DNA of 64,000 nucleotides. Origin: Spirochaetaceae bacterium. GTDB lineage: Bacteria > Spirochaetota > Spirochaetia > DSM-2461. Shown one piece after another: positions 21,001 to 24,000 of the stretch. How positions within the stretch are numbered: the first letter of the stretch is position 1; each line of letters begins with the position of its first letter. A program made the position numbers. Location of the stretch: assembly GCA_965224705.1 (NCBI GenBank), contig OZ245056.1:1920001-1984000 (forward strand). Direction: 5' to 3'.

Positions 21001-24000
21001 CTGAACCTAAGCATGATCCGCTACTTCTTCGAGGCCCCGCCACCGGGCGGAGATAGCAGCGATCCACCACCCAATGCGCCTTTGTTCAATGGCATGTCCA
21101 TCGCGGAACATCCCCAATACCGTGAATACATGGGGCAGTATCCGGTGATTGCGCTAAGTTTCAAGGATGCCAAGGGGGCCTCGCATACGGAGTGCATGGA
21201 AGTCATCAGGGAAATGCTGTCGGCGGAATATCAACGACATGAATACCTGCAAAACTGTGAAGTGCTGCACGAAGCCGATAAAGAGTTGTTTTTTAACATA
21301 TCGAATAGAAAAGGCACGGATCAGGACTGTGCGCAATCGATAAAACATCTCTCCTCCTGGCTCAAGCGCGCTTACAACCAACCGGTCTACATCCTTCTGG
21401 ACGAGTACGACACCCCGCTGCACGCCGCCTACACCGAAAACTTCTACGATGAAATGATCGCCTTCATCCGCAGCTTCATGGGGCAGAGCTTCAAGGACAA
21501 CCCCAATTTGAAACAGGCGGTGGTCATCGGGATACTGAAAGTGGCACAGGAAAGCATCTTCAGCGACTTCAACAATCCGGCAGTGTCCACCGTGCTGAAT
21601 GATTCCATGAAGGATTGTTTTGGTTTCACCGAGGCGGAGGTGGAGGCCATGGCCTCCCATTTCGGGCAGGAATCCCGGCTGGACGGCATAAGGGAGTGGT
21701 ACAACGGCTACATCTTCGGCGGCGACACGGTCATCTACAATCCCTGGAGTCTCGTGAGCTATTTCAGAAACATCAAGGACGGGCTTCTGCCCTACTGGGT
21801 GCACACCAGCGATAACAAACTGGTAAAAGAAGTGCTGCATCTGGACAGAAGGAACAGCAGGGAAGTCGTTGAGAAACTGATCCGGGGAGAGGAAGTCAGG
21901 CGGGAGGTGGTGCTCAACATTGCCTATCCGCAGATAGAAAGAAACACGGATGCCGTGTGGAGCTTTCTGCTCCACGGAGGCTATCTCAAGGCTGACGAGC
22001 GGCAGCAGCTCCACACCTTCATCACCTACCGGCTTGCCATCCCCAATCTGGAAGTGAAGGTGGTCTACGAAAAGGTTGTCCGGGACTGGCTGGAGGAGGA
22101 CGTGGAGATAAGCGATTCCTTTCAGTCCTTCATTCGCGGCATTCGCGAGGGAGATACCGGACTGATCGAAGAGGGACTCGGAAACATCCTCTTCGGCCTT
22201 GCCAGTTATCACGATACGGCATCGCGGGGCAGAAGGGAGGAAAGGAAACGGACGGAGGGCTTCTATCACGGCCTAGTGCTGGGAATGCTGGCCTACCTGG
22301 GCGGTGAATACATGGTGGAGAGCAACCGCGAATGCGGCATGGGCCGTCCCGACATTGTCTTGATCCGCCGCGATACCGGCTCCGGTCGGCCCACCAGGGT
22401 TCTTCTCTTTGAGTTCAAGAGGGAGGATGCCGGTGGAACAACGCCTCTGGAGCAGCTGGCACGGGAGGCGTATTGCCAGGCGGAGCAAAAATACCTTGAG
22501 GGCCTGAGGAAGAAGTGGCAGCCGGGGGAAATCCTTGTTCTGGGGGTGGGCTTTCGAGGCAGGGAACTGGCTCTGGAAACAGGCCGTGATGAATGATGAG
22601 GAATGGGCCATGGAAAAGTCTCTGCTTCAACATTAAATCAATATTTGGAAAGGATCTACACCTGGAAACCAGGCTGTAGCAAGCTTCCTGACACGGAATT
22701 TGATTTTGAGGGCACCTCTAAAAAACCCGCTTTCGGAATCTGGCGCAGAGATTTTTCACTGATACAAGGCGACAAAAACGGAATGTGCCCGGCATGAACA
22801 ATATCCAGCGGGTGAGAATCCCGCCAAGGCCCTGAAAGGCGGAAATTTGTAGAAAAAGACAAGGGTGTCCGAAGAAAGATAGACAACGCATTGAGAGTAT
22901 GCCTGCTCACCAGATGGAGATTGTCTTTCCCAATGAGGAATCTGAAGGAAGTCTAAGTCAAAATATTCGCCTGAACGAGAGTGAACCTTTGAAAGGCAGT
23001 TATGGAGGATGAGATACCTTCGGCTATTGAAGTCCCATATCCTTTACGTAAAATCCATAATTGTGCAGAAGGCAGGCGGGATATGAAATGGAGATTGGTC
23101 TTACCCGGGGAGGGCCTGTGGAATGGAAACTGTGGAACAGCGCCATAAGATTTCCTAAGCCGTGCAGGGATGCAGGGTAATCTTCCACCGGCAGTCAGAA
23201 GAACCCAGGCCGATCAGACGGGTGGAGATCCCGAAACCGGGAGGAGGAGTGAGACTTCTGGACAACTTCAAGGAGCCCGGCTATGCACAAAGCCTTTCCC
23301 AATCGGTATTTCATTGAAGAACTCGGGCAGTTTATCTATTCAGCCTGAGACTGAAAGAAATTGGACACATGCATGAGGAGCCGTGTACGGACCCGTACGC
23401 ACGGTTCTGTGAGAGGACGGCATCCCTGCTTCCGCAAGGTGCCTCCTAACTCGATGCGTAGCTGGGCTACGTGAGCATTTTGGCAACGCAGTAGCAGTGG
23501 TAAAGATCAAACCAGAAACGGAATGGGTGTTTTTTAGAGGTGCCCTTTGTATTCCCGGATGAATTTCCTGGGAGTTCTGGAACAGATGAGTGTGATGGTG
23601 GTATTGCCGTAATTGGCTTCCGGGTTTTCTCTGAGGTAGAGATTTGTGTATATGGAAAGATCGTAAATATCCTGTGCTCTTACGGCATCGCCATATGATT
23701 TGTAGCTGACCAGATTGTACGGCGCGAAATAGTTGAAGATGTCGAATTCTACGCTGGCAGTGTTTTGTTTGATAAGGAGGACATCCAGCCTCTTGGGCTT
23801 TTGAGCATTTCATGTTCCGTTTCAACCAGATATCCGCAAGAGCCGAAAAATTCCCTTGCCTGTCTTTTGAAAAAGGTGTCCAGGGTAATCTGGGCTCTGG
23901 GAAGTGTCTTTTCCATCGTTTGCAGGATAGCATGATTCTGAAGACCTATCCATACCGGGTTTTTCAATCAAACAGCGTTGCCGTTCATCACCAGGCCCCG

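Follow-up and report, generated by a model that had tools for sequence, protein, structure and literature searches.

Class C (IIC) group II introns serve as the model of how a retroelement recognises DNA by its shape, their known target types being terminators and attC sites, and the ORF-less introns of Thermosynechococcus elongatus fall outside this class. In the accessible parts of two reports, known IIC introns are described as requiring a stem-loop 5' of IBS1 (PMC10190682; PMC7161350). Excerpts of two further sources place an intron of P. putida KT2440 near REP elements in two of nine copies (PMC1525189) and describe group II introns as associated with, or 'hiding' in, repeated or mobile DNA (PMC7306698). 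A literature search with subscription journals outside its scope found no paper on intron homing into MITEs.

We analysed a 64,000-nt stretch of a Spirochaetaceae genome (GCA_965224705.1, hereafter G000; contig OZ245056.1, positions 1,920,001 to 1,984,000), referred to as the window, together with a congeneric genome (G001). Intron copies in G000 are labelled A, B and C (full), D, E and F (deleted) and G (a remnant), copy E being the one in the window. Within what the excerpts cover, the family resembles the terminator-homing IIC introns (B.h.I1, GsI-IIC and the E.r. IIC RNP; PMC10190682, PMC7161350, PMC7306698) in combining a reverse transcriptase and maturase without endonuclease, a 4-nt EBS1-IBS1 pairing with one EBS3-IBS3 pair, and a structured intergenic target. 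It differs from them, as they are portrayed there, in that the preferred G000 site lies inside a MITE and not behind a gene terminator, that IBS1 of this site sits in an internal loop with the sole local hairpin 3' of the site, and that 5' hairpins in G000, where present, end 3-14 nt upstream. Like the IIC-attC introns, e.g. S.ma.I2, it uses a folded, repeated site of another mobile system, although theirs is the integron attC site (as excerpted from PMC4424553) and here it is the core of a TIR/TSD-type MITE. The G001 relative, with 14 copies of a 935-nt form, parallels the trans-mobilised ORF-less introns of T. elongatus (PMC2882425, in part), and copy E would be an ORF-less IIC RNA of a size similar to the HYER ribozymes (PMC11754743, in part). 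The first-pass annotation had presented ORF-less, trans-dependent introns as new, but such introns are already in print, to judge from sections of the same sources (PMC2882425; PMC4424553; HYERs via PMC11754743). Unlike in T. elongatus, no ORF-less form has multiplied in G000, and unlike in the P. putida KT2440/REP case, the association involves one exact base, three MITE subfamilies, two species and matching EBS/IBS.

Copy E occupies positions 22783-23455 of the window on the + strand (673 nt) and is an internally deleted copy of a 2035-nt group II intron that interrupts a complete 163-bp MITE exactly at ACGGA/GCGTAGC (the slash marks the insertion point). Its exact ends were set from the empty MITE site and the flanks of intron copies outside MITEs, replacing the earlier 22784..23457. 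Copy E had also been thought to lack its first 6 nt; GCGAA is 5' exon (IBS1) and the trailing G or GC is 3' exon, so these nucleotides are not missing, and the only change is G1 to A. The interrupted element belongs to subfamily MITE-2 (TIR GGGCACCTCTAAAAAAC), its left half (22709..22782, +) being 95.9% identical to nt 1-73 and its right half (23456..23545, +) 97.8% identical to nt 74-163 of an unoccupied copy (73+90 nt). It is bounded by a TTTG target-site duplication (22705..22708 on the left, with the same 4 nt following the right end at 23546..23549; no strand assigned), and 4-nt duplications are found, as judged by eye, at other MITE-2 copies too. Unoccupied MITE copies continue straight over the junction as GCGGA/GCGTAGC, i.e. 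ACAAAAGCGGA/GCGTAGCTGGGCTACG, which bears out the first-pass observation that the joined flanks of E form one piece of MITE.

The alignment of copy E to copy A (BLAST; nt 2-423, 876-927 and 1837-2035) defines three segments. The first (intron nt 2-423; 22784..23207, +; 96% identity) contains domains I-III and probably also the beginning of domain IV, and the second (intron nt 876-927; 23210..23261, +) is all that remains, at 52 nt, of the reverse-transcriptase ORF. The third (intron nt 1837-2035; 23257..23455, +) covers domain IV on its 3' side, then domain V (about 23378-23407, +) and finally domain VI, which runs to 23455 and shows an additional A close to the branch site and a single mismatch in its stem. 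Both Rfam families reported earlier are present on the + strand: RF02001 at 22924-23099 with 86.6 bits, as high as in full copies (80.6-85.9), and RF00029, covering domains V and VI, at 23376-23455 with 42.5 bits, the lowest among six copies (44.7 in B; 47.9 in A, C, D and F). The scores behind the class assignment span 80.6-89 bits for RF02001 and 42.5-48.6 bits for RF00029. The EBS1 loop CCUUCGGC (23017..23024, +) is a terminal loop in the RF02001 alignment, and its EBS1 UUCG (23019-23022, +) pairs with a 5'-exon CGAA or CGGA; in copy E, IBS1 is CGGA, the final 4 nt of the left MITE half (22779-22782, +). A domain I internal loop, unpaired in the same alignment, holds the dinucleotide GC (23065..23066, +), of which C23066 (+) is the candidate EBS3 and putative partner of the +1 G, so that IBS3 would be G23456 (+). 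Fold prediction places a tip hairpin CGTAGC-TGG-GCTACG at 23457-23471 (+).

We assign the intron to class C on sequence grounds, namely protein domains, PDB matches, RF02001 and RF00029, and short EBS pairing. The features taken as diagnostic were a reverse transcriptase and maturase (X) without endonuclease, domains I, V and VI, a GUGYG 5' end and AY 3' end, an EBS1-IBS1 pairing of ~4 nt with a single EBS3-IBS3 pair and no EBS2 requirement, and a site a few nt downstream of a stem-loop (terminator or attC) in the 5' exon. The intron protein has Pfam domains RVT_1 (E 8.9e-40) and GIIM (1.7e-11) and no endonuclease domain, and its top PDB matches are the GsI-IIC reverse transcriptase 6ar1 (8.7e-97) and the E.r. 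IIC maturase 7uim (6.2e-85), with LtrA at only 2.7e-34. Full copies start with GUGUG and end with AU, whereas copy E starts with AUGUG. In G000, five of six 5' junctions have CGAA as IBS1 and that of E has CGGA, all six copies have G at +1, and the domain I dinucleotide is GC; UUCG pairs better with CGAA than with the CGGA of the MITE, which requires a G-U pair.

BLAST with copy A recovers the three full copies (331774-333814, 1071336-1073378 and 1652439-1654478; 97-98% identity) and three deleted copies (1533610-1534289, 1942784-1943457 and 2471783-2472357) of the first-pass annotation, with the full length corrected from 2041 bp to 2035-2037 nt, and there are only six D5/D6 matches in the whole genome. 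Maturase frames are open in A and C (426 codons) and broken into 169+256 codons in B, in agreement with the genes listed earlier as intact (g00292, g01442) and split (g00949/g00950). The deleted copies are indeed internally deleted forms, with revised intervals: D retains intron nt 1-53 + 1411-2035 and F nt 1463-2035, both without domains I-III and without an RF02001 match, while E retains nt 1-423 + 876-927 + 1837-2035 and has lost nt 424-875 including the D4a region. Remnant G, the seventh copy, consists of intron nt 1-25 + 479-612 (genome 1321908-1322063). The copies are mosaics; D differs least from A (3.0%) and F least from C (2.6%), so D and F are not each other's closest relatives, and D, E and F do not group as a clade.

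The interrupted element is a MITE: it has TIRs and a target-site duplication, is small and ORF-less and occurs in many copies. The main MITE family of G000 comprises 99 TIR pairs, of which 75 measure ~161 bp and 16 measure ~285 bp; identical 4-nt flanks (CTAG-like) are seen at 53 of the 99, compared with 1 of 99 in a shifted control. Landing sites number ~150 and not the 250 proposed at first, by counts of 147 BLAST HSPs across the junction, 77 perfect CGGAG-CGTAGC sites and the 99 TIR pairs; sites of the TGTACA type number zero. The MITE predates the intron and has spread more widely: its core is found in 8 of 14 genomes of the genus, and the intron family in 2 of 41 genomes searched, the window's own included. 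Copies D, E and F have an identical 3' junction with the MITE core, confirming their shared MITE position, and the first ~20 nt of 3' flank in common, but their right flanks belong to different subfamilies (MITE-1 at D, MITE-2 at E and the ~285-bp MITE-1L at F) with different arms and TIRs. The earlier count of four of six copies inside MITEs holds in part: complete MITEs surround only E (both halves) and C (in an extra module of a ~285-bp variant), D and F have the right half only, the left half being missing, and A, B and remnant G lie outside MITEs. Synteny around D, examined for a large deletion behind the missing left half, was uninformative, as the left-flank protein had no match in four congeners and the protein of the right flank is a member of a multi-copy family arranged in tandem.

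In the predicted fold, the tip hairpin has at its 5' base a 3x2 internal loop that holds the insertion site, and this loop, GCGGAG opposite TGAGCA, is conserved within the long hairpin of the MITE. Only the arm-arm helix of the folded element, formed by ACAAAA and TTTTGG, is 5' of IBS1, and local folding gave no convincing 5' hairpin within the left arm of the MITE. A tip hairpin on the 3' side makes this an unusual geometry for a IIC intron and leaves the structure that is recognised unproven. Of the five non-MITE 5' exons of G000, those of A, B, C and G have a 5' hairpin, a weak one in B, and that of D has none; the hairpin ends 3 nt upstream of the site in A, 13 nt in C and 14 nt in G, and ~12 nt upstream at locus L009 of G001. 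A hairpin directly 3' of the site was considered as a general rule and rejected, being seen at MITE sites and at L020, L032, L036 and L022 and missing at B, L023, L037 and L038.

Copy E is probably a dead or dying IIC intron copy that arose by reverse splicing into a folded MITE in single-stranded DNA. The RNP would pair the 4-nt EBS1 UUCG with CGGA and the EBS3 C with the next G, these target bases being presented within the internal loop between the 5' arm-arm helix and the 3' 6-7-bp tip hairpin. We infer that recognition is of the folded MITE, and favour a model in which the terminator stem is replaced by the arm helix, whose end lies 1-2 nt before IBS1. As the ~150 MITE copies with the motif lie in harmless intergenic DNA, they form the largest single class of usable sites, and the family would have entered three MITE cores independently (E, D and F) as well as the second module of the long variant (C). 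Two internal deletions would then have removed the ORF and the greater part of domain IV from copy E, followed by point changes (G1 to A, domain VI), and D and F would have lost domains I-III along with the left MITE half. Activity is presumably supplied by the intact proteins that copies A and C encode. The half-MITE flanks at D, F and three G001 copies require an added assumption, either recombination or abortive cDNA repair; we suppose that recombination between copies made them.

A parallel case is found in G001, where a diverged intron has EBS1 CUCU in the loop CCCUCUGA, EBS3 A and the domain I dinucleotide AA, and inserts one base further on, at GCGGAG/TGTACA, in the core of that genome's own dominant MITE. 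IBS1 is GGAG at 6 of 10 5' junctions and the +1 base is T at 7 of 14 3' junctions. EBS1 thus co-varies with IBS1 (UUCG with CGAA/CGGA in G000, CUCU with GGAG in G001), as does the candidate EBS3, whose position is inferred, with the +1 base (C/G and A/T, respectively). The dominant MITE core of each genome fits its own intron, the cores of G001 comprising 132 TGTACA-type and 8 CGTAGC-type sites. Four G001 copies lie at GCGGAG/TGTACA and one further copy has the MITE left half on its 5' side (4-5 of 14-15), only a half-MITE being present at three copies. Repeated insertion at an exact position of the MITE core is supported by the three subfamilies, by the absence of a D/E/F clade, by a second species with co-varying EBS1/EBS3 and a 1-nt shift, and by the greater age and wider spread of the MITE. 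To that extent the first-pass proposal of the MITE hairpin as homing site is supported; the central palindrome itself is at most a candidate signal, being 3' of the site in contrast to the 5' stem-loop of known IIC introns (PMC10190682).

Insertion at any accessible CGRA/G, with survival only in harmless DNA and no structural preference, is an unlikely account, though the likeliest of the alternatives. G000 contains 11,180 CGRAG sites, of which MITE cores make up 1.3%, and three matches in ~150 MITE cores are very unlikely against all of these sites. Under a conservative null restricted to the 961 CGRAG sites outside long ORFs, MITE cores account for ~16% and the probability of at least three hits among 6-7 copies is 0.05-0.08, so that enrichment in G000 alone is weak, and the abundance and harmlessness of MITE cores could explain much of their occupancy. 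The positions of A, B and remnant G outside MITEs likewise show that a MITE is not required. Against purely passive retention, G001 shows the habit too, in the MITE core of that genome, folding energy ranks 5 of 14 complete sites within the top 4% (relative to 400 background CGRAG sites, with G001 sites scored against the G000 background), and IIC introns depend on DNA structure according to the available portion of PMC10190682. Moreover, the observed exactness cannot come from the 5-nt motif alone, which is present 11,180 times.

The first-pass annotation saw a homing signal in the central palindrome and read the 0.67-kb ORF-less forms as mini-introns that splice and retrohome with a maturase in trans, which we regard as improbable. 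Three copies do lie at the base of the palindrome, two maturase frames are intact in G000, E retains a high-scoring domain I (86.6 bits) as well as D5 and D6, and the single ORF-deletion junction shared by 14 of 15 copies in G001, which keep nt 1 to ~840, implies mobilisation in trans in this lineage. However, D and F cannot be ribozymes without domains I-III, and the three forms have three different deletions in one copy each, i.e. none has multiplied. In E, an A occupies position 1, domain VI has an insertion and a mismatch and gives the weakest D5/D6 score together with domain V, and the lost nt 424-875 include D4a, the maturase-binding element of IIC introns in the sections available of PMC10190682. 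One form that keeps all ribozyme domains and D4a and recurs at several loci is found in G001 and not in G000. We also know of no IIC intron that reads a 3' hairpin.

That D, E and F descend from a single ancestral insertion spread later with its MITE by transposition or recombination, as the first-pass annotation allowed, is highly improbable despite their common first ~20 nt of 3' flank, the mosaic copies that suggest frequent recombination or gene conversion and the half-MITE flanks that record past rearrangement, given right flanks from MITE-2, MITE-1 and MITE-1L, the affinities of D to A and F to C, and a shared core of only ~20-45 nt for the exchanges needed.

Returning to insertion into the folded MITE, a third type of IIC target would be added by an abundant MITE core that both species use at a single exact base, their guide loops having changed to match, and the EBS changes between species would be a natural case of guide retuning. 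The internal-loop motif with its 3' hairpin could test the strictness of the 5' stem-loop rule, and a burst of one transposon would here have created safe sites for another. A more far-reaching combination of these ideas is possible but doubtful: the lineage may read a DNA architecture undescribed for IIC introns (IBS1/IBS3 in the internal loop of a long MITE hairpin, with a helper helix closed from the 3' side or the 3' tip hairpin as signal), EBS1/EBS3 may have been retuned in each species to the dominant core (UUCG/C for GCGGA/G-CGTAGC in G000; CUCU/A for GCGGAG/T-GTACA in G001), and a 1.1-kb ORF-less G001 intron with a MITE inside domain I may have kept retrotransposing, so that a DNA transposon was copied through RNA. 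Copy E itself is ordinary decay. For work on splicing or DNA targeting, the G001 family provides a natural ORF-less IIC RNA of 935 nt.

A bias in replication orientation was considered and set aside: five of six copies are co-oriented with fork movement, which is not significant, and the skew is flat from 1.3 to 2.1 Mb, with dnaA at 1.289 Mb and the maximum of cumulative GC skew at 2.73 Mb in G000. RNA-library contigs across domain I run on into full-length intron sequence at 23207 and are not informative on the copy E locus. Public short metagenome contigs contain joints from 22782 to 23456 with sides of at most 29 nt, which derive from other, unoccupied MITE copies.

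A BLAST search of the genome (one 3,005,944-bp contig, 47% G+C; window at positions 1920001-1984000) with a full intron copy at 331774-333814 as query recovered the six group II intron copies of the first-pass annotation, all at the places reported: three full (A, B and C, 97-98% identical) and three deleted (D, E and F; E is the copy in the window). Domain V/VI matches in the whole genome (Rfam) are these six only. We also identified a seventh remnant, G (locus L006; 1321908-1322063, forward strand), comprising intron nt 1-25 and 479-612 and lying ~85 nt away from, and outside, a copy of the main MITE family. 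E matches the group II domain I-IV core (RF02001, 22924-23099, forward strand, 86.6 bits) and domain V/VI (RF00029, 23376-23455, forward strand, 42.5 bits). The full copies all begin with GTGTGCCCGGCATG and end in CTCGAT; the upstream flanks have only GCGAA (A, B and D) or ACGAA (C) in common and the downstream flanks only G, while unoccupied copies of the repeat around E run uninterrupted from GGCGACAAAAGCGGA into GCGTAGCTGGGCTACG. Because the empty repeat copies and the flank comparison fix both ends, the insert in the window is 673 nt long (22783-23455). A full intron measures 2035-2037 nt rather than the 2041 bp first annotated, and E keeps its 5' end, with A instead of G as first base; the 6 nt it was said to lack are 5' exon of the other copies. 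Aligned to copy A, E consists of intron nt 2-423, 876-927 and 1837-2035, D of nt 1-53 and 1411-2035, and F of nt 1463-2035. An open frame of 426 codons is present in A and C, and is interrupted in B by an in-frame stop (169+256). The A/C protein has RVT_1 and group II maturase domains, without an endonuclease domain, and its closest solved structures are the GsI-IIC RT (E 8.7e-97) and the Eubacterium rectale IIC maturase 7uim (6.2e-85), with LtrA far behind (2.7e-34); these domains and nearest relatives therefore place the family in class C (IIC).

The repeat around the intron copies is a genuine MITE, in several subfamilies. MITE-1, the main family (terminal inverted repeat (TIR) GGAGTCTGTCGGACTT), has 99 TIR pairs, 75 of ~161 bp and 16 of ~285 bp, the longer variant (MITE-1L) carrying an additional ~125-nt module; 4-nt CTAG-type flanks are identical in 53/99 pairs, compared with 1/99 in a shifted control. 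MITE-2 (163 bp, TIR GGGCACCTCTAAAAAAC, 11 near-full BLAST copies) has only the central ~75 bp in common with MITE-1. The window also contains an unoccupied MITE-2 copy whose tip hairpin is shortened (about 3840-4002, reverse strand, anchored at genome position 1924002), an unoccupied MITE-1 copy (8130-8293, reverse strand, anchored at 1928293) and a tRNA gene (16899-16971, reverse strand; RF00005, 73.6 bits). The intron insertion point is spanned by 147 BLAST HSPs in this genome, and the perfect motif CGGAG-CGTAGC-NNN-GCTACG occurs at 77 sites. The ~250 landing pads originally proposed reduce to ~150, the figure of 248 being a count of the TIR motif, which occurs twice per copy. The MITE is older than the intron, as its core is present in 8 of the 14 genomes of the genus that were searched, abundantly so in G003, G009 and G012, and the intron family was found in only two of 41 genomes searched, this one included, the other being the congeneric G001. 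The G001 core motif GCGGAGTGTACATG also occurs in head-to-tail arrays (C1:450821-452874, 1668538-1669425 and 2920507-2920930; spacings 170, 125 and 205 nt; at least 11 motif copies in the first), which suggests tandem amplification of MITE units.

Four copies had been placed inside MITEs. Two interrupt complete elements: E lies in a MITE-2 (73 + 90 nt) with TTTG duplications at 22705-22708 and 23546-23549, and C in the extra module of a MITE-1L, between GAAAACGAACGAA and GGCGGC, a site with 21 exact unoccupied copies in the genome. D and F have the right half of the MITE core only, on the 3' side and starting at the same base as in E, so that the common position claimed for D, E and F holds for the 3' junction; no MITE sequence was found by BLAST in their upstream flanks. 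A, B and G are outside MITEs.

Site choice appears to follow the intron guide bases. In the RF02001 alignment, the terminal loop at 23017-23024 is CCUUCGGC, and its EBS1, UUCG, is predicted to pair with the last four bases of the 5' exon (IBS1), CGAA at five of six 5' junctions (A, B, C, D and G) and CGGA, with one G-U pair, in E. The first base of the 3' exon (IBS3) is G in all six copies. The complete G001 genome has 15 copies of a 72-75% identical intron with CCCUCUGA as the corresponding loop; its 5' exons end in GGAG at 6/10 junctions (the rest being GGGG, GGAA, GGAT and one ambiguous), and the +1 base is T at 7/14. An unpaired dinucleotide ~45 nt downstream of EBS1 is AA in G001 and GC here (23065-23066), which fits a candidate EBS3 of A and C, respectively. 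Four G001 copies (L021, L025, L033 and L035) are inserted between GCGGAG and TGTACATGTTGTACATGAGC in G001's own MITE core, one base further along the common GCGGAG than here, as the changed EBS1 predicts, and a fifth, L020, is flanked on its 5' side by the left half of the MITE. Unoccupied cores in G001 include 132 of TGTACA type but only 8 of CGTAGC type, and no TGTACA-type core was found in the window's genome; each intron matches the dominant MITE core of its own genome. Two further G001 copies, L023 and L032, lie in two members of another repeat (containing GCGGCACCTGCCCC), at positions 14 nt apart, so more than one repeat family serves as a landing site for the lineage in that genome.

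Recurrent use of the MITE core by this intron family is well supported. The motif CGRAG occurs 11,180 times in the genome, and three hits at one MITE position are therefore far beyond chance on that basis. Under a conservative null retaining only the 961 CGRAG sites outside long ORFs, MITE cores make up ~16% and P(≥3 of 6-7) is 0.05-0.08. For this genome alone, the pattern could largely be due to the cores being abundant and harmless. However, the same habit is repeated in G001 and IIC introns are known to depend on DNA structure, which together favour a real preference for the core.

As single-stranded DNA, both MITE subfamilies are predicted to fold into one long hairpin (-44 and -38 kcal/mol), with the insertion point in a small internal loop; it directly follows an unpaired GGA and adjoins a 7-bp tip hairpin at that hairpin's 5' base. 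Across the genus, by eye, the loop keeps the sequences GCGGAG and TGAGCA and both adjacent helices vary compensatorily, from CGTAGC/GCTACG to TGTACA/TGTACA in the tip and from ACAAAA/TTTTGG to CTGAAA/TTTCAG in the arm. Known IIC introns, as outlined in PMC10190682 and PMC7161350, recognise a 5'-exon stem-loop of ~12 bp, separated by a short spacer from a 4-nt IBS1 and IBS3, whereas no such local 5' hairpin is predicted in the MITE left arm. We favour a reading in which the arm-arm helix, which stops 1-2 nt short of IBS1, would replace the 5' stem, its partner strand coming from the 3' side; alternatively, the 3' tip hairpin may be the structure read by the intron. At non-MITE sites, 5' hairpins end upstream by 3 nt (A), ~12 nt (L009 of G001) and 14 nt (G, an 8-bp hairpin, GTGGGTTC...GAACCCAC, with the 5' exon ending GCGAA), and at the C site in the MITE-1L module by 13 nt. 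L032 has GGAG within the loop of a 6-bp hairpin, and B, L023, L037 and L038 show little structure. Overall, 5/14 complete sites rank in the top 4% for folding energy against 400 background CGRAG sites, all from the window's genome.

In D here and in L021 and L025 of G001, the 5' flank is not MITE but ends in a proper IBS1, and a MITE right half lies 3'; L020 is reversed, with the left half on its 5' side. Random deletion is a disfavoured source because a matching IBS1 would not remain; the inferred source is recombination among intron copies from separate sites, and in D two copies would have been joined illegitimately at nt 53/1411. F may alternatively derive from abortive cDNA synthesis with repair. 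D is adjoined on the right by a gene for a 598-aa protein (1534593-1536386, reverse strand), whose family forms tandem arrays in congeners (runs of 3 and 6 in G009, and 4 and 6 in G001). The first-pass caveat that D, E and F might descend from a single insertion spread together with its MITE is unlikely, given right flanks of three subfamilies (E, MITE-2; D, MITE-1; F, MITE-1L) and, over the common 573-625 nt, D closest to A (3.0% differences) and F to C (2.6%), not to each other (5.2%). The differences among copies form a mosaic. The three insertions hit three separate MITE copies.

The proposal that the 0.67-kb forms are functional mini-introns using the maturase in trans fails in this genome, as the three deletion forms are all different with one copy each, and D and F lack domain I-III and any RF02001 match. 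E scores highly in domain I (86.6 bits vs 80.6-85.9 in A-C) and keeps domains V and VI, but has A at position 1 and lacks nt 424-875, including the D4a arm, described in PMC10190682 as the high-affinity maturase site in IIC RNPs. An additional A near the branch site and one stem mismatch alter its domain VI, and its D5/D6 score (42.5 bits) is below those of all five other copies (B 44.7; A, C, D and F 47.9). In a yeast group II intron, mutation of G1 slows splicing but leaves it accurate, so E is not provably dead. The feature in the window is real, with its position mapped precisely. E is an ORF-less IIC intron in decay, lodged in a MITE.

In G001 the mini-intron idea is borne out by sequence comparison. 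One ORF-deletion junction is common to 14/15 copies, giving a 935-nt ORF-less form (nt 1-~840 plus the last ~95); the sole ORF-bearing copy is disrupted by an insertion and stop codons, and a search of G001 gave no further group II protein. A MITE-2-like element (TIR GGGCACC[C/T]CTAAAAA, TAGAG flanks) lies at a fixed position, nt ~135, within domain I of six of the eight copies keeping that region (L009, L022, L023, L024, L025 and L033). These MITE-bearing introns occupy different loci with proper IBS1 junctions, and it seems that the intron kept moving with its insert or that the insert spread by conversion.

ORF-less introns relying on a relative's protein, presented at first as new, feature in PMC4424553 and PMC2882425, and ORF-less IIC ribozymes (HYERs) are described in PMC11754743. 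IIC targets named in reviews are terminators and attC (PMC4424553, PMC7306698), and a P. putida intron lies near REPs in 2/9 copies according to a table in PMC1525189; the literature searched contained no account of group II introns that home into MITEs. At the scale of the whole genome, cumulative GC skew drops from 2.73 Mb via the contig start to ~1.3 Mb (dnaA lies at 1.289 Mb), levels off irregularly between 1.3 and 2.1 Mb and then rises; this course may be due to inversions between repeat copies or to faults in the assembly.
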